From Deltaproteobacteria bacterium (lineage in GTDB: Bacteria > Desulfobacterota > DSM-4660 > Desulfatiglandales > HGW-15), in NCBI GenBank assembly GCA_019310525.1, contig JAFDEE010000004.1, positions 8,828-72,827 on the forward strand: a stretch of 64,000 nt of DNA. Direction: 5' to 3'. This document shows positions 12,439-30,913 of this stretch, in pieces (within the stretch, counting starts at the first letter, position 1; every line of letters starts with the position of its first letter). The position numbers and the translations under genes are program-made. Under the pieces are notes generated by a model that searched no databases, had not been told where the DNA came from, and saw only the letters and a list, made by a program, of their open reading frames with translations.

Positions 12439-13800
12439 ATGGGTTCTTCGGGAGATGAGGGGCTCCAGGCCCTGAGAGCCGATGCAGAAAAGATTTTTCG
12501 CGCGGGGGTGGGCAGGGTGGACCCGGGCGAGGCCGTTCGGCGGTTCGTCCGTCTGGAGGGTCAAACCCTGGTTTGCGGGAAAGAAGATTCCCACGGGGTG
12601 CACCTGGATCTTTCTGCATTCGACCATGTCTACCTGGTGGGGGGTGGAAAGGCGACGGCCCCCATGGCCGGGGCCATGGAGGAGATCCTGGGGGAGCGGA
12701 TCACGGGGGGGATCGTGAGTGTCAAGTACGGGTTCACTAAACGGCTTTCCCGAACCGAGGTGGTCGAAGCCGGCCATCCCCTTCCAGACCAAAAAGGAGT
12801 GGAGGGGACCCGGAAGATCCTGGATCTCCTTGAGGGGACTGGAGAGAGGGATTTGGTCTTCTCGTTGATTTCCGGGGGAGGGTCCGCTCTTTTGCCATCC
12901 CCCGCGGGACGGATCACCTTGGAGGAGAAACAGGCGGTGACCCGGGCCCTGCTGGAGTGCGGGGCGAACATCCACGAGATCAACAGCGTGCGAAAACACA
13001 TCTCTTCTTCCAAGGGGGGACAAATGGCCAGGGCCGCCTATCCGGCCACCGTCGTCAATCTTATGCTCTCGGACGTGGTTGGAGACGATATGGATGTCAT
13101 CGCCTCGGGCCCCTTTGTACCCGATTCGAGCACCTTCCAGGAGGCCCTTGGGGTACTGGATCGCTATGGACTCTCGGATATCCCGGAATCCGTCCGGGAC
13201 TACCTGAAGACGGGAATGGAAGGCCGTGTTCCGGAAACCCCCAAGGCAGGAGATCCTGTCTTCGACCGGGTCCACAACTTCGTCATCGGGAGCAACATCC
13301 TCGCCCTGGAGGCGGCGGCGAAGGAAGCGGAAAAGCAGGGATACCGCACCCTGATCCTTTCTTCCATGGTGGAGGGGGAGACCCGGGAGGTCGCCGGGGT
13401 GCATGTGGCCATCGGAAAGGAGATCCTGAGGACCGGCCGGCCCATGCCTCCGCCGGCCTGCGTTATTTCAGGCGGGGAGACCACCGTTACGATCCGGGGA
13501 AAGGGCTTGGGGGGAAGAAATCAGGAATTTTGCCTGGCGGCCGCCTTGGAGCTCCGGGACCTGCCTCCCCGAATCGTGGTGCTCAGCGGGGGGACGGATG
13601 GGAACGACGGACCCACGGAGGCCGCGGGTGCCGTCGTGGATCCGCAATCAGTGAAGCGGGGACGGGACCTAGGGCTGGCGGCCGGGGAATACCTGGAGAA
13701 CAACGACTCCTACCACTTTTTTAAAACCACGGGAGAACTGCTGGTAACCGGACCCACCAATACCAATGTCATGGATGTGAGGGTAATCCTCGTGCGGTGA
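12439..13800 (+). CDS. glycerate 2-kinase (DUF4147/MOFRL family; TtuD-like)
   Basis: 453 aa with a strong RBS (AAGGAGG). Motifs typical of MOFRL glycerate kinases: GGGKA, SGGGSALL, GGETTV and LSGGTDGNDGPT. Confidence 0.85.
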   Translation: MGSSGDEGLQALRADAEKIFRAGVGRVDPGEAVRRFVRLEGQTLVCGKEDSHGVHLDLSAFDHVYLVGGGKATAPMAGAMEEILGERITGGIVSVKYGFTKRLSRTEVVEAGHPLPDQKGVEGTRKILDLLEGTGERDLVFSLISGGGSALLPSPAGRITLEEKQAVTRALLECGANIHEINSVRKHISSSKGGQMARAAYPATVVNLMLSDVVGDDMDVIASGPFVPDSSTFQEALGVLDRYGLSDIPESVRDYLKTGMEGRVPETPKAGDPVFDRVHNFVIGSNILALEAAAKEAEKQGYRTLILSSMVEGETREVAGVHVAIGKEILRTGRPMPPPACVISGGETTVTIRGKGLGGRNQEFCLAAALELRDLPPRIVVLSGGTDGNDGPTEAAGAVVDPQSVKRGRDLGLAAGEYLENNDSYHFFKTTGELLVTGPTNTNVMDVRVILVR

Positions 13801-14962: not shown

Positions 14963-15060
14963 GGTGCAATCCTCGTCAATTTAGGTTTTTTCCCGCCCGG
15001 CCCTTTTCGGCGTGCCGGCGGACCTAGATATTATGTGGGGCATGCAGGCCGAAGGGCCTG

Positions 15061-15993: not shown

Positions 15994-17332
15994 AATCGTC
16001 TTCCAGGCGTTCGATGTCGTCTTCCCCGAAGTAATCTCCCTTTTGGACCTCGATAAAGACCATGTTTTCTTCTCCGGGATTGGCGATCCTGTGGGCGCCC
16101 CCGCGGGGGATGTCCACGGATTCCCCTTCCTTCAGGGCGATCTCCCGCCCGTCGAGGGTCACAAGGGCCCGTCCCGTCACGATGTGCCAGTGCTCGGAGC
16201 GGCGACGGTGCCGCTGGTAGCTGAGCCTTTTTCCGGGATAGACCGTGATCCGCTTGACTTTGTGATCCTGCCTGTCGGAGAGGACCTCGTAGAACCCCCA
16301 CGGCCGGTGATCCTCCCTTTTTCTTTCCTCGAGGATCCGTTCGTAGACACGGATGTAATCGTCCACCATGCGCTCAACGCCGAACCGAGCCTCTACCCAC
16401 CGGCGGCATTCCTCCCGTCGGATTTTTTCGACACGGGAAACCGCTTCCACCATCTCATCCAGGTCTGAGACCAGGAAACCGGTCTGCCCGTGGGCGATCA
16501 CTTCGGGCATACTGCCCCGGTTGAAGGCCAGGACCGGGGTGCCGCAGGCCATGGCCTCGATCACCGAGAGGCCGAAGGGCTCTTCGAAATGGATGGGATG
16601 GAGCAAGGCATAAGCTCCGCCCAGCAGTTCGTCCCTCTTCTCCGGTCCGGCACTGCCGATATAGAGGATCTGCTCGTCGTCGATATGCGGTTTTACTTCC
16701 CTGTTGAAGTAGTCCTCATCCTGGACGATTCCCGCGATGATGAGCTTCTTTCCCGTTTTCCGGGCCACCTCGATGCACTCCCTTGTTCCCTTTTCATGGT
16801 GAATGCGGCCGAAGAAGAGTAGATAGTCTCCTTCGGCGGGACGAAAGGTGAATTGCTTAAGATCGATACCGTGATGAATGGTGGCGATGTATTCCAGCCC
16901 GGGATCTTTGTCCGCTTCGCTGATCGCTACGTAGTAGGCCCTGTGGTTGTATTTCCGATACACCGGCAGGATCCCGGGAGAGGAAAAACCGTGGATGGTG
17001 GTAAGGACCGGGGTGTCGGTCAGGGCGCTGTATGTGAGGGGCAGGAAATCGAAATGGTTGTGGATGAGATCGAATTCATCCGCCCTCTCGAACACCTCCG
17101 AGATATGGAGGCTTTCCCATACCTTCGGATCGAGGGTTTTGTCCTCCTCGTATCCCCTGGCGCAGACGGCGTGAAGCATACCAGCGGTTTCAGAATCTCC
17201 AGTGGCGAAAAGGGTGACGTCTACTCCCCTGGCGACCAGGCCTTCCGTCAAGAGGGAGACGACGTTCTCCCAGGGCCCGTAATGTCTTGGCGGGGTCCGC
17301 CAGGCGATCGGCGATAGCATGGCGATACGCAT
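15968..17332 (-). CDS. GT4 glycosyltransferase fused to a C-terminal PMI-type cupin domain
   Basis: The ORF was trimmed to ATG 17332 (MRIAMLSPIAWRTPPRHYGPWE), which has the RBS AAGGAGG and lies 2 nt after the upstream stop. The last ~112 aa (RPWGFYEV..VKRITVYPGKRLSYQRHRRRSEHWHIV..DDIERLEDDYGR) match the C-terminal cupin of bifunctional ManC/AlgA enzymes. Confidence 0.8.
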   Translation of the reverse strand: MRIAMLSPIAWRTPPRHYGPWENVVSLLTEGLVARGVDVTLFATGDSETAGMLHAVCARGYEEDKTLDPKVWESLHISEVFERADEFDLIHNHFDFLPLTYSALTDTPVLTTIHGFSSPGILPVYRKYNHRAYYVAISEADKDPGLEYIATIHHGIDLKQFTFRPAEGDYLLFFGRIHHEKGTRECIEVARKTGKKLIIAGIVQDEDYFNREVKPHIDDEQILYIGSAGPEKRDELLGGAYALLHPIHFEEPFGLSVIEAMACGTPVLAFNRGSMPEVIAHGQTGFLVSDLDEMVEAVSRVEKIRREECRRWVEARFGVERMVDDYIRVYERILEERKREDHRPWGFYEVLSDRQDHKVKRITVYPGKRLSYQRHRRRSEHWHIVTGRALVTLDGREIALKEGESVDIPRGGAHRIANPGEENMVFIEVQKGDYFGEDDIERLEDDYGRTGTTT

Positions 17333-17334
17333 TC

Positions 17335-18294
17335 TTATCCTCCTTGGATGGCGTTGTGTTCCCTGAGCCATGCGAGAAGTTCCTTGATACTCGCCGTGGC
17401 CAGGGCGATGCAGGTATCGGCGCCTCCGTAATAGAGGCGGATTTCGTCCCCTTCCAGGATCCAACCGCAGGGAAACACCACCTTGTCCACGTCGCCGAAG
17501 ATCTCGTAATCTTCCTCCGGGGCGAATATCCACTCATCGGAGCGAATGATGAGCCGGCGGGGATCTTCCAGGTCAAGGAGGGCCAGGCCCAACCGATAGA
17601 TGGATCCGCTGGCGGTGGTTCGAACCCCGTGGTAGAGGATCAACCATCCTTCCTCGGTCCTGAGGGGCGGGGGGGAGAGGCCGATCTTGTCCGCGTCCCA
17701 CCAGCCTCCTTTTCTGGCTGGAATCAAAATAGAGTGATCCCCCCAGTGTTTGAGGTCAGGGGAAAAAGAGATCCAGATATGGGCGCCGGTGGAGGGGAAG
17801 GTGGCCACGGGCCGGTGAAGCATGGCCCACCGACCGCCGAACCGGACCGGGAAAAGGGCCGCGTCCTTGTCCTCGGGTGGCATGACAGCCCCGATACGTT
17901 CGAACGTTCTGAAATCACGGGTTTTGGCCAGGGAGACCAAGGGTCCGCTCTTTGAGTAGGCCGTGTAAGCCACCACCCAGGATTCCAGTTTTTCCAGGTA
18001 GGTGATTCTTGGATCCTCGATCCCCCAAATCTCCTCAGGGAAGGTCTCCGGGCAGGGCCGAAGGGTGGGCCTTTCGTCGATCCGCCAGGAGCCGACACCG
18101 TCTTTGCTCCGGGCCGCCGTCAGGTGGGAGATACCGCTCCGCTCCTCCACGCGAAGGAGGAGCAGGGTTTGATCCCCGAAAGCGGTGGCCCCCGCGTTGA
18201 AGACCGAGTTAACCGGATAGGGCATCTCCCTTGAGGTCAGGATAGGGTTTCCCGGGTGTCTTCGAAAAAGCTCTTTGAAAAAAGGATTTTTCAT
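17335..18294 (-). CDS. glycoside hydrolase family 130 protein (second paralogue), cytoplasmic
   Basis: 319 aa. By eye it is roughly 40% identical to 15061..15993 over its full length. No signal peptide. Confidence 0.8.
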   Translation of the reverse strand: MKNPFFKELFRRHPGNPILTSREMPYPVNSVFNAGATAFGDQTLLLLRVEERSGISHLTAARSKDGVGSWRIDERPTLRPCPETFPEEIWGIEDPRITYLEKLESWVVAYTAYSKSGPLVSLAKTRDFRTFERIGAVMPPEDKDAALFPVRFGGRWAMLHRPVATFPSTGAHIWISFSPDLKHWGDHSILIPARKGGWWDADKIGLSPPPLRTEEGWLILYHGVRTTASGSIYRLGLALLDLEDPRRLIIRSDEWIFAPEEDYEIFGDVDKVVFPCGWILEGDEIRLYYGGADTCIALATASIKELLAWLREHNAIQGG

Positions 18295-18333
18295 CAGGCT
18301 TTCCCCTCCTTCAATGGAAATGCCGAAATTTTC

Positions 18334-19686
18334 TCAAACCCTTTCTTTCATGCGCTCCAGGGTCCCTTCCACCAGGGAGCGAATCTCCTGAAGTCTTTCT
18401 TCGCTCTGGGCCTCGAACCGCAGTACCAGGATCGGCCCGGTGTTGGAGGCCCGCAAGAGTCCCCATCCGTCCGGAAAGAGGACCCGTACCCCATCCACGT
18501 CGATGATCTCATGATCCTTGGCGAGTTCCTCCTTGACTTTCTCCACGAGTTTGAATTTCTTGTCCTCGGGGCATTCAACCCGGATCTCCGGCGTGTTGTA
18601 GACCTCGGGTAGGTCCGCCAGGCAGCGGCTCAGGGGCTCCCGGTTCCGGGAGAGGAGCTCCAACAGCCGGCAGGCCGCGTAAATGGCGTCGTCATAGCCG
18701 AAGTAGCGGTCCGCAAAGAAGAGGTGTCCGCTCATCTCACCCGCCAGGACGGCCTTCTCCTCCCTTAGTTTTTTCTTGATCAGGGAATGACCGGTCTTCC
18801 ACATGATGGCACGGCCTCCATGGGACCGGATATCGTTGTACATGTTTTGGGAGCACTTCACTTCCCCAATGAAAGTGGCCCCGGGAATTTCCTTCAGGAT
18901 TTCCCGGGAAAAGAGGACCACCAGCATGTCTCCCCAGATGATGCGGCCCTTGTCGTCGACCACGCCGATGCGGTCCGCGTCCCCGTCAAAACCGATGCCC
19001 GCTTCGAGTCCCTGATCCAGGACGGTCCGGATCAGGGTCTCCATGTTCTTGGGGACGGTGGGATCGGGCTGGTGGTTGGGAAAGCGGCCGTCCATTTCGA
19101 AAAAGAGCTCCACGGGATCGCATCCCAGTCTCCGCAGGATGGGGCCTGCCACAACCCCCCCGGTCCCGTTCCCGGCATCCAGGGCCACCTTGACGGGCCG
19201 CTCCAGGGTTATGTTGCGGGCAAGGTAATCCTGGTAGGGGGTGATAATGTCGTAGGTTTCCACCGAGCCTTTCCCCTCACGCAGGGTGCCCCGCTCAAGG
19301 AGTCTCCTGAATTCCTGGATTTCTTCCCCGAAGATGGTGTCCGGCCCCAGGCAGACCTTGAAGCCGTTGTACTCGGGAGGATTGTGGCTTGCCGTGATCA
19401 TGAGACCGCCGTCGGCCTCGAGGTGACGGATGGCGAAGTAGAGAAGCGGGGTCGGACAAACTCCAATATCGATCACGCGAGTGCCCGAATCCAGGAGGCC
19501 TTTCACCAGGGCATCCCGGATTTTCGGAGAGCTGAGTCGGCAGTCCCGTCCGACTATGGCCCGCGTTCCTCCATGCTCTGAAAGGTAGGTCCCGTAACCG
19601 CGCCCGATTAGCTCCACGTCTTCCAGGTTGAAATCCTTCTCCAGGATGCCGCGGATATCGTATTCCCTGAATATCTCTTTCTTCAT
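18334..19686 (-). CDS. phosphomannomutase/phosphoglucomutase
   Basis: The start was moved to ATG 19686 (MKKEIFREYDIRG, RBS AAGGAGA). Motifs: TASHNPPEYNGFK (active-site Ser loop), DGDADR and GEMSGH. Confidence 0.9.
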   Translation of the reverse strand: MKKEIFREYDIRGILEKDFNLEDVELIGRGYGTYLSEHGGTRAIVGRDCRLSSPKIRDALVKGLLDSGTRVIDIGVCPTPLLYFAIRHLEADGGLMITASHNPPEYNGFKVCLGPDTIFGEEIQEFRRLLERGTLREGKGSVETYDIITPYQDYLARNITLERPVKVALDAGNGTGGVVAGPILRRLGCDPVELFFEMDGRFPNHQPDPTVPKNMETLIRTVLDQGLEAGIGFDGDADRIGVVDDKGRIIWGDMLVVLFSREILKEIPGATFIGEVKCSQNMYNDIRSHGGRAIMWKTGHSLIKKKLREEKAVLAGEMSGHLFFADRYFGYDDAIYAACRLLELLSRNREPLSRCLADLPEVYNTPEIRVECPEDKKFKLVEKVKEELAKDHEIIDVDGVRVLFPDGWGLLRASNTGPILVLRFEAQSEERLQEIRSLVEGTLERMKERV

Positions 19687-19841
19687 GGATGCCTTTCTCC
19701 TTTCCCCTTTTGTTGTTTTCGCCATGGCATTGCAAAGGAGAGATTCTTTCCGGCCCGTTTCGAGTTTGCCCGCCCGCCCGGCCCTTGGCGAAACTCTCTC
19801 CCATCACCCCCCAGGCCGGGATGGAGTTCTCCGAATGTTCG

Positions 19842-21068
19842 TTAGAATTCCGGATCGAGGATGACGGGTCTCCCGGTCCTTTTGGCCTCCCGGGCGAGCT
19901 CGTAAGCCTCATTGTACTGCCCGGCAACCACTTCCCACGAAGCGACCTCGTCCAAGTATCGCTTCAGATTTTCCCCCAGTTTGAGCCTGAGTGTCTCGTC
20001 ACTGGCCAGCCGGATCACCTTCTCCCTGAGCATCGCCTTGGTGGTGAACAGCAGACCCCCCTCGCTCTCCAGGGTCTGGGCCGTCAATCCCTCCATGGGT
20101 GCGGTGGTGATGTAAGGTTTGTTCAGGGCGATGATACGGGCCAGGGTCCCTGATTGGGTTTCGTCGGTCGAGGGGAGCACGATGAAGTCGCAGGCCCCCA
20201 TCACCTTGTAATAGATCTCACCCCTCGGGATGAACTCATAGTAATGGGCGATTCCCTTGAGCTGGAGCTCGAGGGCATCGGATTTCCAGCGCTCGTAGTC
20301 GGCCTGATGGGAAGGGTCCCGCATGGTGCCCGCTGCAAGAAGATCCCATTCCTGGCCGCAGCGGACCTTCAGTTCCTCATGGATCTCCTCCCACATGGAG
20401 AGAAGGATGTCCCATCGCTTGTTGGATTGGATCCAGCCTATCATTCCCACCAGGTGTTCCGCGAGGCCCATCTTGTCGAAACCGAGTTCCGCCCGCACCC
20501 GTGGTATCTCATGGATGCCCAGGCGCCTGTCGGGTCTGGCGCCGTGGGGCACCACCATGACGTTTCGCGGAGTCTCCCAGCCGTATCCAGGAAAGGTCCA
20601 GTCGAGTCTCCACTTCTGGTAGTGGCACTTGAAGAGCACCACATCGCTTCTTTGGCAAAGTTCGTAGATGAAGTTGGCCTCGAAGGTCCTCAGACGGCCG
20701 TGGACGGTGTGAGGTTCCACGACGATGGGGAATTCCGAGATGGCCTCGAGGAGGGTCAAAAAGCCCTCGTTGCCGTCTCCGATGCCCCGCTTGTCCCGGT
20801 ATTCATAAAGGCCGTACTCGTGTTCCAAGTGGACCGCATACGGGTTCAGATCCCTGATCTTATCGGCCACAGGCCTCCACCAGTCCTGGCGTCCCATGTC
20901 GATCAAGGGGAAGACGCCTTCCCCTTCTCCGTCAGTATGGCTGATGACCAGAACCTGCCTGCCGGGATTCGCCTTCTGTATGAATTCCCGGGCCTCTTCG
21001 GCAAAGGTGGCGATGCCGCAAAGCCTCGGGGGATAGGAGCTGACCATGACGATGGGAGAGTTATCCAT
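19842..21068 (-). CDS. GT4-family glycosyltransferase
   Basis: The start was moved to ATG 21068 (MDNSPIVMVSSYPPRLCGIATF). It shares the PPR.CGIATF N-terminal motif with the next gene and has a C-terminal E..G motif region. Confidence 0.75.
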   Translation of the reverse strand: MDNSPIVMVSSYPPRLCGIATFAEEAREFIQKANPGRQVLVISHTDGEGEGVFPLIDMGRQDWWRPVADKIRDLNPYAVHLEHEYGLYEYRDKRGIGDGNEGFLTLLEAISEFPIVVEPHTVHGRLRTFEANFIYELCQRSDVVLFKCHYQKWRLDWTFPGYGWETPRNVMVVPHGARPDRRLGIHEIPRVRAELGFDKMGLAEHLVGMIGWIQSNKRWDILLSMWEEIHEELKVRCGQEWDLLAAGTMRDPSHQADYERWKSDALELQLKGIAHYYEFIPRGEIYYKVMGACDFIVLPSTDETQSGTLARIIALNKPYITTAPMEGLTAQTLESEGGLLFTTKAMLREKVIRLASDETLRLKLGENLKRYLDEVASWEVVAGQYNEAYELAREAKRTGRPVILDPEF

Positions 21069-21082
21069 TGCTTGACTCCGAA

Positions 21083-23377
21083 TCAACGTTGGCCGGGCAA
21101 TTGCTGGACCGCCTCGGTCCCCATCAGGTTGTGAAAGCTCATGATGGAAAGGAGGCAGGCCAGGGTGGATTCCGCCCCTTGGTTCAAGTTCGGGCCGTCC
21201 GCCGTGAGACCGTCGCGGCAACCCCCCGTGGTATAGTCATACAAAGGGGTGTTCAGGTCGTTCCTGCCGAAGAACCAATCAAGGGCCCGTCTTGCCTCCT
21301 CGATCCACCTCCTGTCCCGGGTGACGTGGTAGGCCTCGATACAGGCATCGATCATGCCCTGGGCCTCGATCGGTTGCTGGTCGAATCGGGCCCGTTCCCC
21401 GTTCCTGGAATACCATCCCCGATTCCCGATGGGCACGAAATGGCCTTTTGGATCGGTCTGAATCCGCACGAGCCAGTCCAGTGAACGAAGTCCGGCCTCG
21501 ATCATTTCTCCATTCTGCAACCACTGCCCCGACAGGAGAAGGGCCTGGGGAATCTTTCCATTGGCATAGGTGACGATATCCTCTATCCAGGGCCAATCCG
21601 GGGTCGCGTTGGCCCGGAAAAGATCGAAAAGGCCGTTGGCCAGGGTCTCCCTGAGACGTCGCACTTCGCTGTCCCCGCTGTATTTTCGCAAGTAGGCGTG
21701 AATACCCACCAGCCCGAAGGCCATGGCCCTGGGGGCCTGGAACCCGGACATAGCGGGAAGGGCCCGTTCAAAGAGGTTCAAGGCGACCCCTGTTAAGTTC
21801 TGGGACCGTGAAAGGGCGACCGCCATGCCAAGGGCCCAGATGGCCCTGGCGTGGCTGTCTTCCGAGCCCATTTCCTCCTGCCACTTGCGGTCGTATCCCA
21901 TGAAATTCCGGAAACGGCCGTTCTCCGCGTTCAGGGCATGTTCCAGGAAACTCAAGTACCTGCAGGCCAGGATATCAAGTTCTTTTTCCCCCGAGATCAA
22001 ATCCCGGGCCATCAGAACGGCGATCAGGGCCCTCGCGTTGTCGTCGGTGCAGTACCCGTAAGCGCGGTCCGGCACGATGAATTTCGCATGCTGGAGAATA
22101 CCCACGTCATCGGTCAAGAGCTTGAGATGATCGAATTTAGGCTGGGGTAGGTCCGGCGAGGTGGCGTCCAGGGCCTTGGTTTGAAAGGTGGGCCTGGGAT
22201 GAAGTTCCCGTTCCTGTTTCACCTCGCCGAAGATCTCCAGGTACCGCCTGGCCACCTCTTTCCAGACCATGTTCCGGCAATAGGTGTAGGCCCGCTTTCG
22301 CATGGCATGCCGTTCCACTTCATTGGCCAGCAGGTCGTTGATCTCCGCCGCAAGGGCCTTTGAGTCCCGGAAGGGTACGAGCCGTCCCCTGCCTTCCCCC
22401 AGCATCTCCTCGGCATACCAGTAGGGAGTGGAAATGGTCGCCTTTCCCGTGCCAAGGGCATAGGCAAGGGTTCCGGAGACGATCTGATCGCGGTTCAAGT
22501 ACGGGGTTACATAGACATCGGCGGCCCCCAGGAATTCGATCAGCTCTTTGAGGCTCACAAACCGGTTATGAAATATAATGTGTTTTTCCACTCCCAGGTC
22601 CCGGGCCCTTTGCTGCAGGGAAAAACGATAGGACTCTCCTTCAGTCCGCCTGATGTGGGGGTGAGTGGCGCCCAGGACGATATACTTCGTATCCGGGTGG
22701 ACCCCTACGATCTCAGGGAGGGCGTCGATCATGTGCTCAATGCCCTTCCCGGGTGAAAGCAGGCCGAAGGTCAGGATGACTTTCTGCCCTTCAACTCCGA
22801 ACTGATCCTTGAAGTAGTTGGGATCCACGAAGGGTACGTCGGGAATCCCGTGATGGATCAATACGATCTTCTCGGCGGGGATGTCGTAGATCGACCGGAG
22901 GATCTCTTCGGCCTTGCGGCCCATGACCACCAAGCGCTCCGAACAGCGGGCGATCTCTTCAAGGGTCCTCTTCTGCTCGGAGTCGGGCTCCTGGAGGACC
23001 GTGTGCAGGGTAGTGACCACGGGCATCCGCAGGTTGCCGATGAGTTCCAGGATATGACGGCCGCAAGGCCCCCCGAAGATGCCGAATTCGTGTTGCAGGG
23101 AGACCACCTCTACTTGGTTCATGTTCAAAAAATCGGCGGCCAGGCGGTAATCGGTCAATTTTTTTTGATCCAGTTCAAAACGGACCTGGGGGGGATAGGG
23201 ATAACCCTGGGGAATGTCGTTCATCACGACGGCCCAGCACTGGGTTTCAGGGGCCTCGCGGCGGAAAGCCGCCAAAAGATCGGTGGTGAAGGTGGCGATT
23301 CCGCATTGCCTCGGCAAGTGGTTTCCTATAACGGCCATCCGCTTGGGGGCCGTGCGGAGCAGTTCTCCTCGGTTCAT
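21083..23377 (-). CDS. two-domain protein: N-terminal GT4 glycosyltransferase plus a ~370-aa C-terminal helical domain, possibly an (alpha/alpha)6-toroid glycosidase/epimerase-like fold
   Basis: The start was set at ATG 23377 (RBS AAGGGGAGGA); the longest ORF starts at 23413. The N-terminus carries LPRQCGIATF and GT4 motifs. The C-terminal 371 aa (21086-22198) are rich in regularly spaced W/Y/D helical segments (DDNARAL, WALGMA, WPWIED, GWYSRNG). Confidence 0.75.
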   Translation of the reverse strand: MNRGELLRTAPKRMAVIGNHLPRQCGIATFTTDLLAAFRREAPETQCWAVVMNDIPQGYPYPPQVRFELDQKKLTDYRLAADFLNMNQVEVVSLQHEFGIFGGPCGRHILELIGNLRMPVVTTLHTVLQEPDSEQKRTLEEIARCSERLVVMGRKAEEILRSIYDIPAEKIVLIHHGIPDVPFVDPNYFKDQFGVEGQKVILTFGLLSPGKGIEHMIDALPEIVGVHPDTKYIVLGATHPHIRRTEGESYRFSLQQRARDLGVEKHIIFHNRFVSLKELIEFLGAADVYVTPYLNRDQIVSGTLAYALGTGKATISTPYWYAEEMLGEGRGRLVPFRDSKALAAEINDLLANEVERHAMRKRAYTYCRNMVWKEVARRYLEIFGEVKQERELHPRPTFQTKALDATSPDLPQPKFDHLKLLTDDVGILQHAKFIVPDRAYGYCTDDNARALIAVLMARDLISGEKELDILACRYLSFLEHALNAENGRFRNFMGYDRKWQEEMGSEDSHARAIWALGMAVALSRSQNLTGVALNLFERALPAMSGFQAPRAMAFGLVGIHAYLRKYSGDSEVRRLRETLANGLFDLFRANATPDWPWIEDIVTYANGKIPQALLLSGQWLQNGEMIEAGLRSLDWLVRIQTDPKGHFVPIGNRGWYSRNGERARFDQQPIEAQGMIDACIEAYHVTRDRRWIEEARRALDWFFGRNDLNTPLYDYTTGGCRDGLTADGPNLNQGAESTLACLLSIMSFHNLMGTEAVQQLPGQR

Positions 23378-23470
23378 GCCAATTCCTCCCCTTGAGACTG
23401 AAATGACATGCAACCCCCTTTCGGAAGGTGATGGGCGGAGTCATCCGGATCCGGACAGGATGGTGTCTTA

Positions 23471-23550
23471 GCAGGCTGTTGAAAAACTACTGTACTTTCT
23501 TGCCAACGTTTGCCTTGCCTCAGCTGCGCGCGCTACGTTTTTCAACACCC
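23471..23550. repeat. REP-like palindromic element, copy B1 (GGCTGTTGAAAAACTACTG ... GTTTTTCAAC)
   Basis: 10-bp stem GTTGAAAAAC/GTTTTTCAAC. The first ~30 nt are nearly identical to the reverse complement of 24386-24434. Confidence 0.5.
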
Positions 23551-23692
23551 TGTTAGAGCAAAGAGGAACCGGCACGGGATGAAAGAGATCAAGCGTCATC
23601 GGACCTATGCCATCATACAGGGGTGTTGGGCCTGTGGCAAGCACCGGGAGAGTTTAGGGACCCGGCCTTTGTGGAAACCTTTGCGGAGGTCT

Positions 23693-24034
23693 TCAAAAAA
23701 AACGTTCCAGCCACTCCTGAAAAGAGAGATACTTTCCAGTGTGGTAGTCATAGCAAGGTTCGAGAGGGTTCCTGGCGCCTTCATCTCCCATTTCCTCTGT
23801 CCACCGGGACAGGACATCCCTCAACTCTTCCCCGGGAATTCCGAACTGCCGTGCCAGGGTCTTGGTTCCATGGACGTTCCTGTAAACGGCCGCCATCTGC
23901 CACAGCGCCTTGCGGCGCAGTTCCTCGATCTGATCATCGGGCAGGCCGTGCCGGGAAGCCAGATGGGCCGCCCGGGCATAGTGCCCGGCTTCGATCAAGG
24001 TCCTCAGCTCCTCGTTTTCTATCTTCCCCTCCAT
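23693..24034 (-). CDS. hypothetical small helical protein
   Basis: 113-aa ORF (MEGKIENEELRTLIEAGHYARAAHL...) with coding-like composition and no recognisable motif. Confidence 0.5.
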   Translation of the reverse strand: MEGKIENEELRTLIEAGHYARAAHLASRHGLPDDQIEELRRKALWQMAAVYRNVHGTKTLARQFGIPGEELRDVLSRWTEEMGDEGARNPLEPCYDYHTGKYLSFQEWLERFF

Positions 24035-24385
24035 TGTCCTTTCGCCGTGTTCCTCCCTGAATCTTGCTTGTTTGGCAAACTCAACGCTTGCAAGATTCAG
24101 GTCCTATGATCACCCATTTCCGCCCGTAAATTGGGTTCTTCTTCCCTCGACCTGTATCCGGTCGCAGGCACGAAAAAGGGCCCCTCCGGGGCGCTTCTTT
24201 TCTCGCTTTCCGCCTATTTTTTGGGCGGAAAAGTTTGGAAATTGCAGATGAATTACATATAACACGTTGATATTTTAGGACAATTTACAACATACAGTGA
24301 TAATCATTCAAAGGGGATTGTCAAGGTTCCCGCCCTTTTTTCCTGGCCTGGCCGCTCTTGACAATTCCCGAAAAAGCATTACCAA

Positions 24386-24434
24386 GTTGTTGAAAAATGC
24401 AGCGAGTGCAGTAGTTTTTCAACAGCCTGGCAAG
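24386..24434. repeat. REP-like palindromic element, copy B2 (inverted relative to B1)
   Basis: GTTGAAAAATGCAGCGAGTGCAGTAGTTTTTCAACAGCC. Its reverse complement matches the B1 5' end at about 27 of 30 positions. Confidence 0.5.
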
Positions 24435-24568
24435 TCTTTTTCAGGGCCGATGACCATGCCTCCGGCGACGACAGGACGGCCCGCTTGCGGGCCGTCCTGT
24501 CGGGTGAAGTATCCGGAAAACGGCTCCTCTTTTTGTGTCTGGATTTTCGGAAAAAAGGAAGAAGCCTG

Positions 24569-25501
24569 ATGGAAAGAGCATTGTTTTTGGAGAAATATTC
24601 AATCCGGCCCGAGGAATTCGAAAGGGCGGGCTTGAGCTGGGAAGAGCTCCTTGCAATCAGAGACGACCACCGTCGGAATCAGGATCGCCTGGAGGCGGCC
24701 GCCAGGTACGTATCGGACCGTTTGGGCACGGTCGAGGAGGTTCACAGCATCAAGACCCGGATCAAGGATCCGGAGCACCTTATAGAGAAAATCATCAGAA
24801 AGAGGTTGGAAGACCCAACCCTTGTCCTGGATCGTGAGACCTACCGGTTCGTCATCACCGACCTGGCCGGGGTAAGAGCCCTCCATCTTTTCAAGGAGGA
24901 CTGGGAAAAAATCCACGAATTCATCATCCACACATGGGAACTGCGAAGAAATCCCGTCGCCAACGTCTGCGAAGACGACCATGACCGTTTCGTAAAGCGC
25001 TTCAAGGAAAGGGGATGCGAGATACACAAGCATCCCTTCGGTTATCGTTCCGTTCATTACCTGGTTTCCTTCGCACCTTCCAAGGTGGAATTCACCACGG
25101 TTGAAATCCAGGTCCGCACCATCCTGGAGGAGGCGTGGAGTGAGATCGATCACATGATCCGCTATCCTTACCGGGCGGATAAAACAGCCCTCTCACCGTA
25201 TCTCGTCTTCCTCAACCGGCTCCTGGGGAACGCCGATGAAATGGGTTCCTTCATCAAGCTGCTCAATGACAACATCAGCGGTAAGTCCAGGGATCGCTAT
25301 ACCCGTGATTGGAAGAACAGGAGCCCGATCCATTACCTGAAAAGAGACGTGGACGGTCTCCCCGTTGAGATGAATATCAAGCGTTTGCTCCAGGAAAGGA
25401 TCCAGTCCCTTGAAAAACATCTCCTCTCCCTCAAAACCATGCCCTCCTATGACAGTGTGACCGAGGCCTTTTCTTCTCCCCACACCGGGACCCCATCGTG
25501 A
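24569..25501 (+). CDS. RelA/SpoT-domain protein (small alarmone synthetase-like nucleotide pyrophosphokinase) with a C-terminal extension
   Basis: The start was moved to ATG 24569 (MERALF, RBS AAGGAAG). Synthetase motifs: KTRIKDPEHLIEKIIRK, ITDLAGVRAL, GYRSVHYLV and VEIQVRTILEEAWSEIDH. Confidence 0.8.
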   Translation: MERALFLEKYSIRPEEFERAGLSWEELLAIRDDHRRNQDRLEAAARYVSDRLGTVEEVHSIKTRIKDPEHLIEKIIRKRLEDPTLVLDRETYRFVITDLAGVRALHLFKEDWEKIHEFIIHTWELRRNPVANVCEDDHDRFVKRFKERGCEIHKHPFGYRSVHYLVSFAPSKVEFTTVEIQVRTILEEAWSEIDHMIRYPYRADKTALSPYLVFLNRLLGNADEMGSFIKLLNDNISGKSRDRYTRDWKNRSPIHYLKRDVDGLPVEMNIKRLLQERIQSLEKHLLSLKTMPSYDSVTEAFSSPHTGTPS

Positions 25502-25561
25502 TTCCTCCCGGTTGACGAAAGGGGACCAGGAACCTGCGGGAAAAAGGAGGACGGGTCCCCC

Positions 25562-25589
25562 TTGACAAACCGAAAATCCAGATTATTCA
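25562..25589 (+). promoter_or_regulatory. possible sigma70 promoter (TTGACA-16-TATTCA) for the Hsp20 gene, implying a ~185-nt leader
   Basis: Hexamers read directly. Confidence 0.3.
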
Positions 25590-25779
25590 TTTTAAAAACA
25601 GTGAGATAGAACGGGATCGGAAAGGGATTGAAATCCAGGGCCTCAGTCGGGTTCCTGCAGCAATCTTCGATAAGGGAAAGGCATATCGTCCCGCCTGTGG
25701 GTCATGACCCAAAGGCGCCCCCCTCTTTTTCTTGATCTTTTCAGGCTCTGGAAACCCAAGACAATGAGGAGGTGAAATC

Positions 25780-26514
25780 ATGGCCGTATCCGAAAAAGCA
25801 AAAGAGAAACTCGATGAGGCGAGCAGGGAAATCAAGGAGGCTATAGACAATCTCAAGCAGGAGGTTGTGGAACTCTCCTCAAAGGTCAAGGAAAAGCTCA
25901 AAGGAACCGGAGAGGAGATGCGGGTGGGCGTGGAAGAGCTCACCCGGGAAGTGAAAGCCCTCTCAGAGAGAGTCAAGGATCTGATTCCGAAAAGGAGAAG
26001 AAGTGGCCAGGTTCCAGTGAGGGTTCAGAGGACCCCGGGATTTTATCCAGGCACCTGGGAGCAGCCTTTCCTGGAACTTCGAAGAGCGACGGATCGCCTT
26101 TTCGATGAATTCTATCGAACTTTTCAGTGGCCCATGGGTCGCTGGAGAGGCCCTCTGGGATGGCCGGGGGAAATCCTCCAGCCGGATTGGCCCCGGGTGG
26201 ATGTTATCGAGGATGATGAAGAAATTCGAATCACCGCGGAGCTGCCCGGGGTGGAAAGGGACGACCTGGAAGTCTTGCTTAGCGAAGGACGGATTATCAT
26301 CCGGGGGGAAAAAGGGGGGCAGGAAGAACAAAAGCACCGGGACTATTATCAGATAGAAAGATATTATGGCGCCTTTTCAAGGAGCATTCCACTTCCCTGT
26401 GAGGTCGATTCCGAGAAAGTGGAAGCGACCTTCAGGGACGGGGTGCTAACCATCCTGCTTCCCAAGAGGGAAGACGCTCGAAGGCGCACGAGGATTACCG
26501 TCAGGGCGGCCTAG
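25780..26514 (+). CDS. Hsp20/alpha-crystallin small heat-shock protein with a long N-terminal charged helical extension
   Basis: 244 aa with a strong RBS (GAGGAGG). The alpha-crystallin domain runs from about aa 137 (VDVIEDDEEIRITAELPGVERDDLEV..GVLTILLPK). Residues 1-75 are a K/E-rich heptad-like sequence. Confidence 0.85.
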   Translation: MAVSEKAKEKLDEASREIKEAIDNLKQEVVELSSKVKEKLKGTGEEMRVGVEELTREVKALSERVKDLIPKRRRSGQVPVRVQRTPGFYPGTWEQPFLELRRATDRLFDEFYRTFQWPMGRWRGPLGWPGEILQPDWPRVDVIEDDEEIRITAELPGVERDDLEVLLSEGRIIIRGEKGGQEEQKHRDYYQIERYYGAFSRSIPLPCEVDSEKVEATFRDGVLTILLPKREDARRRTRITVRAA

Positions 26515-26621
26515 CGGAAATGGAAGGAGGGGCCGCTCCCTTCCGGCCTGTAGATCCTTTCTTTGGTTGAGCAACCCGATCCGCTGGGGAAGGGGTATCA
26601 TGAAGAATAGGAGGGTGCCGA

Positions 26622-27215
26622 ATGAAAAGGCCTTTGCCGCTCTTCAGGGATGTATGCTCGGGTGAGAGAAAGGTCAATACAGCGACCCTGGAGCAGGTGG
26701 TTCTTTTGGCTGTCGAGATTGCCAGGGAAGGCCGGGAAGGGCGGAAGATCGGCACCCTTTTTGTTGTTTCCGATTCAGAGAAGGTGTTGAAACGGTCCAA
26801 GCCCCTGATTCTTGATCCCCTTAAAGGACACCCGGACGAGGTCAAGCGCATCGGTGACATAAACCTCCGGGAGACACTGAAGGAACTGGCTCAGCTGGAT
26901 GGGGCCTTTGTGGTCTCGGATGAGGGGGTCGTGATTTCTGCCTGCAGGTATATCAACGCTTCGTCGGAAGGGATCCGTCTCCCCCTGGGATTCGGCAGCC
27001 GTCACATGGCTGCGGCCTCCATCTCCAAGGAAACGGATTGCGTGTCCGTAGTGGTTTCAGAGAGTTCCATCGTTCGGGTATTTGACGACGGGGAACTCGT
27101 ATCCGAAATTATCCCGGAGATCTGGGTCATGAGCAAGTACAGTCATCACCTGAGCGGAGGCGAGATCTCGGAAAAAACGGATCGCAAGCTGATGGTCGTA
27201 AGCAAGACGGGGTGA
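26622..27215 (+). CDS. stand-alone DisA_N / diadenylate cyclase (DAC) domain protein with variant catalytic motifs
   Basis: 197 aa with RBS GGAGG. DAC-like core: GTLFVV, LDGAFVV (canonical HDGA), GSRHMAA (canonical GTRHRAA) and VVVSESS. Confidence 0.75.
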   Translation: MKRPLPLFRDVCSGERKVNTATLEQVVLLAVEIAREGREGRKIGTLFVVSDSEKVLKRSKPLILDPLKGHPDEVKRIGDINLRETLKELAQLDGAFVVSDEGVVISACRYINASSEGIRLPLGFGSRHMAAASISKETDCVSVVVSESSIVRVFDDGELVSEIIPEIWVMSKYSHHLSGGEISEKTDRKLMVVSKTG

Positions 27216-27246: not shown

Positions 27247-28488
27247 TTATCCGCTGTTTTCCCCGGCCGGCCTGCCCTCCGCCCAGCGCTTGAGCAGGTA
27301 AGGCTTGGTTTTTTCAAAGACCATGCAGTCTTCTTCAATGGCTTCTTCGGCCTGCTGGGTTGACATTCTTCGGGTCTTCTTGACGAAGGACAGGGTCCTC
27401 CCGAAGTAAAGGGGAATCAGGGCCTCCATCATGTCGTCGGGATCACACAGGGTATCCCGGTACCCTACGGCCATATCGTAAAGGATCCTCGCCCAGAGGT
27501 CCGTCGGGAAAGCGAACATTCTTTCCTTCATCCCTTTGATCTCCAGGAGTTTTTGAAAGACGTCCCTGGACAGGACTTCCTGGAGGATTTCCTTGTGTTC
27601 GTCGAAGCCCTCATGGAACCGCTCGAATAGCTTCTTGGTGTCCACTTCCACCTTGGGGGGCATGGCCACCTCACCCAGGCCGAATCCATAGATGGCCGTG
27701 GGTTTGCTGTATTTCACCCGGGTCCAGTAAGATTCGAAGTGGACCATCAGGTTGAATATGGTCCCCACTACCTGCCGGAACATGGGGCCCAGGGCCGCCG
27801 CGGGGTCCTTGGGCCTGTGAATCTTGGGCTTTCCCATGAAGGACTGGCAGACCTGGATGCCCTGGTTCAGGGCAAGAGTGGTCATCCAGATGTCGATCCC
27901 GAAATTGGCCACGGCCTCGTCCCAGATGGCACTCTCGAGGTAGACCCTGGCCAGTTCACCGCTGAACCCGAAATCGCCGCCGATGGGCTGGCGGACCCTG
28001 CGTCCGTATAGAGCCCTTGAGAGCGGGTAGGCGATGCCGTTGGTGATGGTGCCGTCATATTTATGACGAACATAGAGGGGCGCGACATAGGAAAAATCAT
28101 CGAAGAGAGGTTCGGCCAGGTGTTTGATCCATTCCGGGGTAATACTTTTGAGATCCGCGTCCACGACAACGATTGCCCGGGCTTCCAGGTCGAGCACTTT
28201 CTCGAAGAGGTTCTTGAAGTTGTTCCCCTTTCCCTTGACCCCCGGCGGCGTGGAGATGTAAATCTTGGGAACTTTGGTGGGGGTGTCCAAGAATGCCTGT
28301 TTCGTATTGTCCGGGGAGTTGTTGTCGCAATTGACGATCACGGTGGACAGATCGGGGAAGTACTTTACCAATCCCTCGCTGGCCTGAATCGTGGGATAGC
28401 TGATGGAGTCCGCCTCATTATAGGAGGGGATACTGACCACCAGCTCGGCTTTGGTGATACCTTCAGGATTGACTTCCTTTTCAAACAT
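27247..28488 (-). CDS. GT-A fold glycosyltransferase of the glucosylglycerate / glycosyl-3-phosphoglycerate synthase type
   Basis: 413 aa with VVSIPSYNEA, NCDNNSPDNT, GKGNNF and VVVDADL (DxD). It overlaps the phosphatase gene start by 8 nt. Confidence 0.65.
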   Translation of the reverse strand: MFEKEVNPEGITKAELVVSIPSYNEADSISYPTIQASEGLVKYFPDLSTVIVNCDNNSPDNTKQAFLDTPTKVPKIYISTPPGVKGKGNNFKNLFEKVLDLEARAIVVVDADLKSITPEWIKHLAEPLFDDFSYVAPLYVRHKYDGTITNGIAYPLSRALYGRRVRQPIGGDFGFSGELARVYLESAIWDEAVANFGIDIWMTTLALNQGIQVCQSFMGKPKIHRPKDPAAALGPMFRQVVGTIFNLMVHFESYWTRVKYSKPTAIYGFGLGEVAMPPKVEVDTKKLFERFHEGFDEHKEILQEVLSRDVFQKLLEIKGMKERMFAFPTDLWARILYDMAVGYRDTLCDPDDMMEALIPLYFGRTLSFVKKTRRMSTQQAEEAIEEDCMVFEKTKPYLLKRWAEGRPAGENSG

Positions 28489-29368
28489 TTTTCCTAAGAC
28501 CTCCCTTCAATTTGAGCAGAATGCCCGAAACGGCGTCGTTCCAACCCCGGGGCCCGGGCTCGGAAGTTATGCTCAATCCGGGAATATCTTCCTTGATCCC
28601 CGGAAAATCCCGGTCGGAGCGGACCAATACCGGGTAGTTTACCCGCTTTAACATGGAGAAGTCGTTTGGGCTGTCCCCGAGACCGATGGTGACAAGCCGC
28701 AAATAGGTCCTCCCGTACCAGATGATCAGTTTCCCGACGGCCTCACCCTTATCCACCTTTCCGTGGAGATGAAAGAACCGCCCCCCCTGGGTCACTTTGA
28801 GGCCCCTGGTGCCGGCGGCCTCCTGGAGGGCCGCGATGTTCCTCTCCCCTTCCAGTAGGAAGGGCTCGTCGAATTCCCTTTGCGCTGCAAGTCTGCATGT
28901 GTCCGGGTCCAGCCCGGTCAACGCAGCGATTTCCTCCGGGTCCATGTCCGAAAATCCTCGGAGGTCCCAGTTCAATTCCTCTCTGATCTCCTTTAGGGCC
29001 TTGACCAGGCTTTTATATGGAGGACCCAGGGACCATTTCCAGAACTCACCGTCCAATACAGCCTCGCCCGGAGGCCAGTTCGTTCCCCCCATCGGGAAGA
29101 AGATCCCCCCGCCGTTTTCGGAGACAAAGGGGGCAGTGAGTCCCAATGTTCTCCAGAGCCTCACCATCTCGGCCCTGGTCTTGCTCGAGACCAGGACCAC
29201 GGGAATATCGGCTTCTTTGCAGGTCTCAAGGGCCGGTGCCGCCTCCTTCCACTCGTAAGTGTCCTGATCCAGCAGCGTTCCGTCAAGATCCGTGAAAATG
29301 ATCGGGAAGAGGGCGGCCGATCGGGGGGATTCCGGGGCATCCCTCTCAGAGGAACCGCCGCTTTTCAT
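28481..29368 (-). CDS. HAD-IIB mannosyl-3-phosphoglycerate phosphatase family (MpgP/YedP-like)
   Basis: 295 aa with FTDLDGTLLD, YEW..AAPAL, VLVSSKTRAEM and GLGDSPND, which aligns well by eye with E. coli YedP. Confidence 0.8.
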   Translation of the reverse strand: MKSGGSSERDAPESPRSAALFPIIFTDLDGTLLDQDTYEWKEAAPALETCKEADIPVVLVSSKTRAEMVRLWRTLGLTAPFVSENGGGIFFPMGGTNWPPGEAVLDGEFWKWSLGPPYKSLVKALKEIREELNWDLRGFSDMDPEEIAALTGLDPDTCRLAAQREFDEPFLLEGERNIAALQEAAGTRGLKVTQGGRFFHLHGKVDKGEAVGKLIIWYGRTYLRLVTIGLGDSPNDFSMLKRVNYPVLVRSDRDFPGIKEDIPGLSITSEPGPRGWNDAVSGILLKLKGGLRKNV

Positions 29369-30641
29369 TCTCCACCACCTCGATCAGGTCGAAAAAGATC
29401 TTCGGGAGTTTGTTGGAAATCCTCTCCCAAGAAACTGTCTGGGGCATCTGAAAAAGACCTTCCAATGTCTTTCGCTCCACCGCCAGGATAGCCTCCGAGA
29501 GACCCATTTCGAGGAAGGGCTTGAATTCCTCGTGGGTATGAACCAGTCTCAGGAAGCGTTCGGTCATCTGACGGGGAGAGGTGAGAAGTTCTCCGGCATG
29601 GAGGATGGAATTGGTGAAAACTTTTTTCACCAGGTATTCCTCGGAGTCCCGATCGTAACGGAGGCTGTTGAAGCTGGCATCGTCCGAGTATTTTTTGATC
29701 TGTTCTTCGGCCACCGCATTGTAAGTGATGGCCAGGTCCCTGAAAAAGGTGTCGGAGATCTCAAGGCCCTCCTCGATCACCAGGGCGTTCATCAAAGTTG
29801 TCACGATGTCCACGGCCATTCTGTTCAGGCCCCTGTTACGGTCGCCGTCAGAGACATCCTGGTGCTTGTGATCAAAGGGTTCCTCGGAGAACATCACCTG
29901 AGCCGGGCTGGATGCCTTTCTGTAAACCTCGATCAGGGTAAAGATCTCTACACCCCAGTTGGTTGCGAAACGCATCCTTTTCAGCAAGTCCACGTGAAAG
30001 GCCACCTCGCCGGAGAGCTGATAGTGGAAACCCAGGAGAAAGTCGATGAGGCGGAGCATCTTGTCTTCCTTGGACTCCGTGAACTTCCGCTTGAGCGAGA
30101 GAAGGAGCGGATCAAGGAGGAGCCTCTTGACCCTCCCGTAAAGTTCTCCGTCCTTGAGGCGGGCGTAATACGCCTTTGAGAAATCATACCCCAGTACCAC
30201 CACGGGGTAAAAGAGCCGATCGAGTTGCACCTTTTTAAAGGTGCGGATGTCGGCATCCACAAGGCCGATGGATTCTGCACCCATGGCGATGGCGATCCCG
30301 AAACCGAGGAATATGTTCTTGCCTTTTCCGGGTTCACTGATATTGAATCCTGCCTCATTCAGTTGTTCGTAGATCCCACTGAACCCCGGTCCGTCGTTCC
30401 ATTGAATCAGGGCGTTCTTTATACCGTATTTCAGGATCAGTTCTTGAAGGGTGTGTGCCTCCCTTTCGCTGGCGCCGTCAAGCCCGAAGATCACCTGGGA
30501 TAGATAAGTGGTGGCCCGGAGTTCTTTCAGGATGTTTTCGAAAACGGGACGGTTGGCGGGGTCCATGAATTCGCTGGCCAGGGTGGGGACGATCAGAACC
30601 GTTTTCTTCCACTTGGAGCCGAGTCGAAGTTGGTTGCGCAA
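29346..30641 (-). CDS. glycosyl-3-phosphoglycerate synthase-like GT (GT55/GT81-like: MpgS/GpgS type)
   Basis: 431 aa with a TTG start. The core GKGKNIFLGFGIAIAMGAESIGLVDADI resembles the GKGEGM...VGFVDADN core of mannosyl-/glucosyl-3-phosphoglycerate synthases. Confidence 0.65.
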   Translation of the reverse strand: MRNQLRLGSKWKKTVLIVPTLASEFMDPANRPVFENILKELRATTYLSQVIFGLDGASEREAHTLQELILKYGIKNALIQWNDGPGFSGIYEQLNEAGFNISEPGKGKNIFLGFGIAIAMGAESIGLVDADIRTFKKVQLDRLFYPVVVLGYDFSKAYYARLKDGELYGRVKRLLLDPLLLSLKRKFTESKEDKMLRLIDFLLGFHYQLSGEVAFHVDLLKRMRFATNWGVEIFTLIEVYRKASSPAQVMFSEEPFDHKHQDVSDGDRNRGLNRMAVDIVTTLMNALVIEEGLEISDTFFRDLAITYNAVAEEQIKKYSDDASFNSLRYDRDSEEYLVKKVFTNSILHAGELLTSPRQMTERFLRLVHTHEEFKPFLEMGLSEAILAVERKTLEGLFQMPQTVSWERISNKLPKIFFDLIEVVENEKRRFL

Positions 30642-30740
30642 CGTCCTTCGATCCTGCTTGAGGACGTGAAAAGTGGTGATTCGGCTGCGGTTTTGGGAGA
30701 AGTCCGTGATGGGAAAACCCTCCTTCCCGTTTAGCGGGTG

Positions 30741-30769
30741 AATCTAAAGAATATCAAGGCGGTTGTCAA
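30741..30769 (-). promoter_or_regulatory. sigma70-type promoter (TTGACA-17-TAGATT) for the GT-phosphatase-GT operon
   Basis: Hexamers read on the minus strand, about 90 nt upstream of the TTG start at 30641. Confidence 0.4.
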
Positions 30770-30913
30770 ATTTTCTTTGGAAGAAATCCGCCGGTGGATT
30801 TGACCGCCCCGAAAGGCGCGGGCGGATTCCTTGAGTTTTATTTAAAAAATACGCAAAAATGGTTCCATTATCGCTCCCCTGGGAGCCGGGCGACGGTCAG
30901 GCCTCTGGAGGGG

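Follow-up and report, generated by a model that had tools for sequence, protein, structure and literature searches.

We analysed a 64,000-nt stretch of DNA (hereafter the window) from Deltaproteobacteria bacterium assembly GCA_019310525.1, contig JAFDEE010000004.1, positions 8,828 to 72,827, in which three head-to-tail genes on the minus strand encode a GpgS-like glycosyltransferase (GT; gene 1), a GpgP-like HAD phosphatase (gene 2) and a second, Ggs-like GT (gene 3). The list of open reading frames (ORFs) gave this triad as 29346-30641, 28481-29368 and 27247-28488; the limits adopted here, with those of neighbouring features, are collected in Table 1. Both junctions were read directly: gene 2 starts with the ATG at 29368 while gene 1 ends with the TGA at 29348-29346, and genes 2 and 3 share ATGTTTGA at 28488-28481, which bears out the overlaps of 23 nt and 8 nt claimed in a preliminary description of this DNA. 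Through these overlaps the three genes appear to be translationally coupled, and they are probably co-transcribed, as a predicted single transcript, from a promoter just 5' of the triad. What had been called a good sigma70 promoter is indeed present at 30769-30741 and matches the consensus at 10 of 12 positions, but three promoter-like sites were seen in the 4.7-kb region against 2.0 expected by chance from shuffles, so that this site is not significant by itself and, as weak evidence when taken alone, is retained as a promoter candidate. Between ruvB and the promoter-like site there is also a long GC-rich inverted repeat on the minus strand (~30795-30832; GGAATCCGCC...GGCGGATTTC, enclosing GCCCGCGCC-TTTC-GGGGCGG), which may terminate ruvB and which was missed by the terminator scan because no T-run lies 3' of the repeat.

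Among curated models gene 1 matched best to NF040724 (GpgS_Meth, the M. burtonii-type GpgS) with an E value of 5e-61 and 206.7 bits over residues 10-354 (345 residues), and none of its NCBIfam matches at E<=0.01 was an MpgS family model. With the Pfam model Osmo_MPGsynth, which represents the GT55 MpgS enzymes, it scored only 24.7 bits, under the gathering score. When the AlphaFold (AF2) model of gene 1 (predicted local distance difference test, pLDDT, 83.9) was compared with the PDB by Foldseek, all of the 48 best matches were GpgS or MpgS proteins (E 9e-11 to 2e-7), including mycobacterial GpgS and the MpgS of Rubrobacter, Pyrococcus and Thermus. GKG and DAD motifs are present in gene 1 as well as in gene 3, and the GKG, DXD, HKHQ and GLxRM blocks of gene 1 are shared with canonical-type GpgS and invariant across both clades (alignment A7). 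By its GT-A fold and these motifs, gene 1 belongs with the glycosyl-3-phosphoglycerate synthases (GT81, GT55 and relatives), and homologues at 72-83% identity mostly carry the JGI name 'glucosyl-3-phosphoglycerate synthase'. The same genome holds a canonical-type GpgS paralogue (C1:105994-107295), which scores 287 bits on NF040724 and is 30% identical to gene 1.

Gene 2 is certainly, as judged from its sequence, a member of the MPGP family. It passed TIGR01486 (HAD-IIB MPGP family) with 248.4 bits against a curated cut-off of 164.75, and its motifs FTDLDGTLLD (D27xD29xT), SSKT (S61-S62-K63-T64) and GDSPND were all found. It failed all the MpgP equivalog cut-offs, namely TIGR02461 (206.4 against 244.35), NF001216 (217.7 against 353) and NF001218 (213.2 against 362). 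A sequence search of the PDB gave Thermus MpgP (3ztw, E 1.4e-37), Escherichia coli YedP (1xvi) and Pyrococcus MpgP (1wzc) as the closest solved relatives. Among members of the MPGP family are HAD-like GpgPs that have been characterised from M. burtonii and P. marina, and Thermus MpgP also shows GpgP activity (PMC3240985, table). Since membership of gene 2 is at the family level only, its sequence does not fix whether the substrate is glucosyl- or mannosyl-3-phosphoglycerate.

Gene 3 matched only Glycos_transf_2 and, just under threshold, MGS_GT in Pfam. Its AF2 model (pLDDT 92.5; predicted template modelling score, pTM, 0.90) had as best PDB fold the Rhodothermus marinus mannosylglycerate synthase (MGS; 2y4j, 2bo4) with 412 columns, E 2.8e-17 and TM 0.70/0.76. 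This match spans the full length of the protein, taking in the GT-A and the C-terminal helical domain alike; mycobacterial GpgS matches gene 3 only in the GT-A half. In a profile alignment MGS residues K76, D100, D102, R131, T139, D192 and H217 fall on K87, D110, D112, R141, T149, D199 and H224 of gene 3, each of which is either invariant or conserved to 90% or more among 87 homologues. We take R131 and T139 of MGS (R141 and T149 here) to hold the carboxylate of D-glycerate, a binding role that Flint is said to have described in 2005. The two domains and the MGS catalytic residues place gene 3 with the one-step glycosyl-glycerate synthases of the GT78-type fold, and because the full-length MGS fold is joined by conserved catalytic and putative acceptor-binding residues, gene 3 looks, on its model, like a Ggs-type one-step synthase acting on a free hydroxy-acid acceptor. 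Two homologues at 78-82% identity (P0019, P0092) carry the JGI name 'glucosylglycerate synthase'. MggA, which is a retaining mannosyltransferase of GT4 with a GT-B fold (Cunha 2013, PMC3736172), was considered for gene 3 and ruled out, as the modelled fold is GT-A and MGS-like and the Pfam matches are to Glycos_transf_2 and MGS_GT; gene 1 is GT-A too. A profile search with AT-rich Ggs-like representatives led to Patescibacteria, Woesearchaeota and Calditrichota and to no Persephonella, a cluster look-up with 10 thermophile-like Ggs representatives to Thermococci and Thermotogota metagenome-assembled genomes (MAGs) only, and a locus scan centred on a Thermotogota Ggs-like protein to 80 named loci, none of them from Persephonella or Petrotoga mobilis. 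Some cluster representatives contain two or three stretches resembling Ggs, or combine one Ggs-like domain with other domains (P0244, 1179 aa; P0254, 1061 aa; P0269, 748 aa; P0271, 730 aa).

Taken together, we consider it probable from sequences and models that the triad is a gpgS-gpgP-ggs type cluster which provides two alternative routes to glucosylglycerate (GG) or a very close glycosyl-glycerate. In one route the GpgS-like GT-A enzyme would, judging by family and fold, move glucose from nucleoside-diphosphate glucose to the 2-OH of D-3-phosphoglycerate, and the MPGP-family phosphatase would then strip the phosphate to give GG. In the other the Ggs-like enzyme, given its MGS fold and residues, would glycosylate free D-glycerate directly and dispense with the phosphatase. 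The sugar is probably glucose, because gene 1 resembles GpgS far more than it does GT55 MpgS; we only infer the nucleotide donor and the osmoprotective role of the product. No GG hydrolase of the GH63/MGH1 type was found in the genome. Part of what the preliminary description had read from the letters holds: the synthase core of gene 1, the family of the central gene, the resemblance of the downstream GT-A enzyme to the glucosylglycerate-synthase type and the glycosyl-glycerate locus with a phospho-intermediate step, in which a synthase-like GT is followed by an MPGP-family phosphatase. Its further argument, that two GTs around one phosphatase are laid out for a two-sugar solute on the pattern of GpgS, MggA and MggB, is not borne out; because MggA is a GT4 enzyme with a GT-B fold while gene 3 is GT-A and MGS-like, the triad lends no support to a diglycoside. 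The known explanation for the second GT in such clusters, which we apply here by analogy, is a one-step Ggs offering an alternative route to the same monoglycoside, a situation known from Persephonella marina and Petrotoga mobilis. For annotation, two glycosyltransferases around one phosphatase need not mean a two-sugar solute, and a tempting over-reading is thereby corrected.

Dual pathways of this kind are known for GG in P. marina, mannosylglycerate (MG) in R. marinus and mannosylglucosylglycerate (MGG) in Ptg. mobilis, and GgS condenses ADP-glucose with D-glycerate (PMC3736172). Given these dual routes to one solute, two GTs around one phosphatase are a known signature of a two-route monoglycoside cluster. 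A close parallel is Persephonella marina, with a GpgS-type GT, an HAD phosphatase of the MPGP family and a one-step GT-A enzyme (Ggs, EC 2.4.1.268), that is, two routes to one solute. Its glucosylglycerate genes gpgS, gpgP and ggs are reported to be clustered (Costa 2007; Fernandes 2007, J Bacteriol 189:4014), and Fernandes is said to have described ggs as lying together with gpgS and gpgP in an operon-like arrangement; in the window, likewise, gpgS-like, gpgP-like and ggs-like genes are adjacent on one strand. Unlike in P. marina, gene 1 here is of a divergent GpgS subclade with a probable ATC start, and the host is a mesophile-type MAG of the Desulfobacterota. Rhodothermus marinus also combines a one-step (MGS) with a two-step (MpgS/MpgP) route to one glycosyl-glycerate, and its MGS (GT78) shares with gene 3 the two-domain fold, the DXD motif and the equivalents of K76, R131, T139, D192 and H217; however, gene 3 and MGS are only 18% identical and gene 1 is much nearer to GpgS than to GT55 MpgS. 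The MGG pathways of Petrotoga mobilis and Rhodopirellula baltica (GpgS + MggA + MggB; GgS + MggS) have the first step in common with the triad (GpgS; GgS in Petrotoga), and GpgS, MggA and MggB can be clustered, e.g. in Coraliomargarita, but MggA belongs to GT4 (GT-B) and the MggB of R. baltica is an unrelated HAD protein, neither of which is in the triad, and the only GT4 genes of the window lie in the separate operon at 13883-23413. Methanococcoides burtonii, lastly, has the GpgS that defines the best curated family of gene 1 (NF040724) together with an HAD-type GpgP partner.

The triad is kept in the same order and with similar overlaps in six further loci (L003-L008). One of them is a near-identical MAG (L003), four follow ruvB and show 75-83% identity (L004, L005, L007, L008), and L006 is a complete Desulfobacteraceae MAG with a different context. 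In a sample of 301 genomes of the phylum, gene-1-type orthologues were found in 32; they adjoin a gene-3-type gene in 8 of the 9 other genomes of the window's order and are unlinked elsewhere. A Ggs-like gene occurs in 136 of these genomes and a GpgS-like gene in 117, with both in 112, Ggs only in 24 and GpgS only in 5 (Fisher p = 3e-51, uncorrected for phylogeny). The Ggs-only genomes and the unlinked arrangement outside the order are more in keeping with independent routes than with a pair obliged to act in sequence. In many genomes a canonical-type GpgS adjoins a Ggs-like gene, with or without an HAD gene between them. Clusters of this kind are therefore common and already known, the one in the window being a version particular to its lineage, in which GpgS is divergent. 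A sediment-type Desulfobacterota MAG lineage thereby joins those in which both known routes to glucosylglycerate are predicted, and the frequency of the GpgS-like and Ggs-like pair in the phylum should help to read osmotic and nitrogen-stress physiology from metagenomes.

Several arrangements around related synthases were noted alongside. Outside the window's order, a gene-1-type synthase has a PF00702-type HAD gene upstream, beside a 528-aa protein without a Pfam match, in one genome (L095 7214-9958, G042) and an MPGP-type HAD gene downstream in another (L097 7330-8109, G040), and in other genomes no phosphatase adjoins it. In two Desulfobacteraceae MAGs (L060 3824-6782, L090 6028-8529) a Ggs-like gene of another clade, ~40% identical to gene 3, lies directly 5' of a GpgS gene whose product shares 78-81% identity with the C1 paralogue of this genome; the C1 paralogue itself has no Ggs-like neighbour. 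It is followed on the same strand (L002 8037-16307 neighbourhood) by glgA (GT5), glgB, a gene for a GH57-DUF3536 protein and an S-adenosylmethionine methyltransferase gene, a layout which recalls, by analogy, the GpgS, alpha-glucan, GH57 and methyltransferase logic of mycobacterial methylglucose lipopolysaccharide (MGLP).

A number of observations weigh against the reading of the triad as a two-route GG cluster. Gene 1 stays far under the NF040724 equivalog cut-off (206.7 against 700 bits, which also sets it apart from the M. burtonii enzyme), and its subclade is divergent, with ~40 aa inserted close to the C-terminus and with DAD in place of the DCD motif; with a more canonical paralogue in the same genome, its specificity could have shifted. 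For gene 3, the nearest solved structure belongs to a mannosyl transferase and shares only 18% identity, and of ~35 close homologues named by JGI only the two mentioned above are 'glucosylglycerate synthase', most others having generic names. The likeness to P. marina GpgS, GpgP and Ggs is one of enzyme types, and a GDP-mannose supply operon (ManC, PMM, PMI-cupin) lies 4-13 kb off. As to the first point, the top NF040724 score across the phylum sample is 389 bits and no genome reaches 700, so that this cut-off is lineage-specific; it leaves out every Desulfobacterota relative and tells little of function.

The same architecture could serve mannose, as an MpgS-MpgP-MGS set making mannosylglycerate by two routes in the manner of R. 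marinus. That mannose operon, the mannosylglycerate synthase as nearest solved structure of gene 3, the MpgP names of the top equivalog-level matches of gene 2 and the Rubrobacter, Pyrococcus and Thermus MpgS among the fold matches of gene 1 would all suit such a set. We nevertheless regard it as unlikely, as gene 1 prefers GpgS_Meth (5e-61) to Osmo_MPGsynth (24.7 bits, under gathering) and has no NCBIfam MpgS match, gene 2 misses every MpgP equivalog cut-off, the identity of gene 3 to MGS is low, JGI names of the homologues are glucosyl- names, and the mannose operon is not beside the triad in relatives. Improbable to a like degree is that the GTs work in sequence to build a diglycoside, glucosyl-glucosylglycerate or mannosylglucosylglycerate, with the second sugar added by gene 3 or by the GT4/GH130 enzymes of the neighbouring operon. 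The very strong co-occurrence of GpgS-like and Ggs-like genes and their adjacency in 8 of the 9 other genomes of the order could be so explained, P. marina is reported to accumulate glucosyl-(1-6)-glucosylglycerate (Lamosa 2013, as cited in PMC5381378), MggA is a GT4 enzyme (PMC3736172), and here an operon with GDP-mannose genes, three GT4 and two GH130 genes is inserted exactly between ggs and the glycerate kinase gene. But gene 3 is GT-A, not GT4, matches MGS over its full length and keeps the R141 and T149 taken above to bind a small hydroxy-acid carboxylate; 24 genomes have a Ggs-like gene and no GpgS-like gene, and the two gene types are unlinked outside the order. The mannoside operon, moreover, is absent from beside the triad in relatives and resembles a Thermoanaerobacter cluster (PMC4264767) with no known link to GG. 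A diglycoside would be possible only through genes outside the triad, namely the GT4/GH130/GDP-mannose operon at 13883-23413.

It is more doubtful still, and to us very unlikely, that the products are primers for a polymer or glycolipid rather than free solutes. GG is the known primer of mycobacterial MGLP (PMC3240985, PMC2674218), and the second GpgS paralogue of this genome adjoins glgA, glgB and the genes for the GH57-DUF3536 protein and the methyltransferase; yet this polymer-like context belongs to the paralogue and not to the triad, whose conserved neighbour is a glycerate kinase gene and which has no acyl- or methyltransferase genes, and the pairing of a one-step synthase with a phosphatase is a solute-type layout.

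The odd feature of this otherwise known layout is the apparent rare non-ATG start of gene 1. The preliminary description had made it a 431-aa GT, which stands as to the GT but not as to the length, since gene 1 probably begins 69 nt further 5', at ATC 30710 and not at TTG 30641, and so encodes 454 and not 431 aa. Full-length homologues all begin 23 residues ahead of TTG 30641, with M(T/S)DFSQ..ITTFH, and the block xTDFSQ..ITTFH is also kept at the N-terminus in the canonical GpgS clade. In the window GGAGG is found 8 nt 5' of ATC 30710, and between this codon and the upstream in-frame stop there is no ATG, GTG or TTG. A second assembly (L003) has the identical ATC, and NCBI annotates the 454-aa form there. 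Among 119 homologue clusters the conserved start position holds Ile in at least 52, where it sits behind non-conserved extensions of 2-71 residues, and Met or Val in 42, and 25 are short calls without the conserved N-terminus. Gene callers extend or shorten the N-terminus of this gpgS-like gene, whose start is ATC here and ATT in several relatives. At the DNA level 7 of 11 scored loci of the order have ATT or ATC at the start position (window, L003, L006, L101-L104), three have ATG, and in L106 the codon is GAT, immediately preceded by an in-frame stop; L107 (GCT) does not enter this count, and no match was obtained for L105. In the window and L003, in L006 and in L103, which represent three lineages, no canonical start lies 5' of the ATY codon before the stop is reached. 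A Shine-Dalgarno-like, purine-rich motif of the GGAGG type precedes the start by a few to ~10 nt, be it ATG or ATY, and is weak in L006.

Initiation of gene 1 at AUU or AUC is the simplest reading of these sequences. That the orthologues are mostly translated from a conserved non-AUG codon of this kind is a proposal we make tentatively, and it may well not hold. If it does, the stress-solute operon, whose downstream genes are coupled by overlaps, would carry within itself a translational throttle like the IF3-sensitive one of infC, and solute synthesis would be set by initiation fidelity as well as by transcription; any regulatory role of the AUU or AUC start is speculation. If confirmed, the Ile-codon start would add a rare natural example to the conserved non-AUG starts of infC and pcnB and offer an easy way into the translational control of solute synthesis.

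Table 1. Positions of the triad and of neighbouring features in the window.
Feature	Position	Strand	Description
gpgS-like gene (gene 1)	29346..30710	-	divergent glycosyl-3-phosphoglycerate synthase; 454 aa from probable ATC; 431 aa from TTG 30641
gpgP-like gene (gene 2)	28481..29368	-	HAD-IIB mannosyl-/glucosyl-3-phosphoglycerate phosphatase family; 295 aa
ggs-like gene (gene 3)	27247..28488	-	putative one-step glycosyl-glycerate synthase; GT-A + C-terminal helical domain; 413 aa
sigma-70-like promoter candidate TTGACA-17-TAGATT	30741..30769	-	10/12 matches; ~30 nt 5' of ATC start
MOFRL glycerate 2-kinase	12439..13800	+	Pfam DUF4147 + MOFRL; 72% identical to kinase after L004 triad
GDP-mannose/GT4/GH130 operon	13883-23413	-	ManC-like, GH130, GT4::PMI-cupin, GH130, PMM, GT4, 776-aa GT4
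199-aa ORF	23510-24109	+	no family match
stand-alone diadenylate-cyclase-domain protein	26622-27215	+	197 aa; best match haloarchaeal DacZ, 139 bits, far under cut-off

Among the neighbours of the triad, the gene for a MOFRL glycerate 2-kinase converges directly on ggs in four relatives (L004, L005, L007, L008), the kinase of L004 scoring 217 bits on NF041176 (glycerate 2-kinase), and a glycerate kinase gene also comes immediately after the distant Ggs-like genes of L024, L033 and L035. From this arrangement the glycerate 2-kinase is a probable accessory gene for glycerate turnover, and the enzyme flanking the triad in relatives probably feeds released glycerate back to glycolysis. In the window the two genes, direct neighbours in relatives, are split by a ~13-kb block (13883-27215). 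It begins with the GDP-mannose/GT4/GH130 operon, the core of which resembles the beta-1,2-mannoside phosphorylase cluster of Thermoanaerobacter (PMC4264767) and the position of which leaves room for a possible later mannosylation of GG. The 199-aa ORF is followed on the plus strand by stress-type genes for a RelA/SpoT small synthetase, Hsp20 and the DacZ-like diadenylate cyclase. The diadenylate-cyclase gene converges on ggs; the link is positional only and is not seen in relatives. Cyclic di-AMP regulates osmolytes in other bacteria. A minus-strand ORF of 119 aa 3' of ggs had no family match, and the plus strand there encodes the diadenylate-cyclase protein.

An assignment of MggS to GH130 found no confirmation in the open literature and was not used as evidence. 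That the mannoside operon might go together with Ggs-like genes at other loci was also considered and rejected, as GH130 was nearby in only 1 of 80 distant loci and there stood beside a chaperonin gene. In that locus (L064 967-3569) the GH130 gene, whose product is 74% identical to the second GH130 of the window, immediately follows a group-II-type Cpn60 gene and stands 2.4 kb from the Ggs-like gene, with few ORFs in the DNA between.

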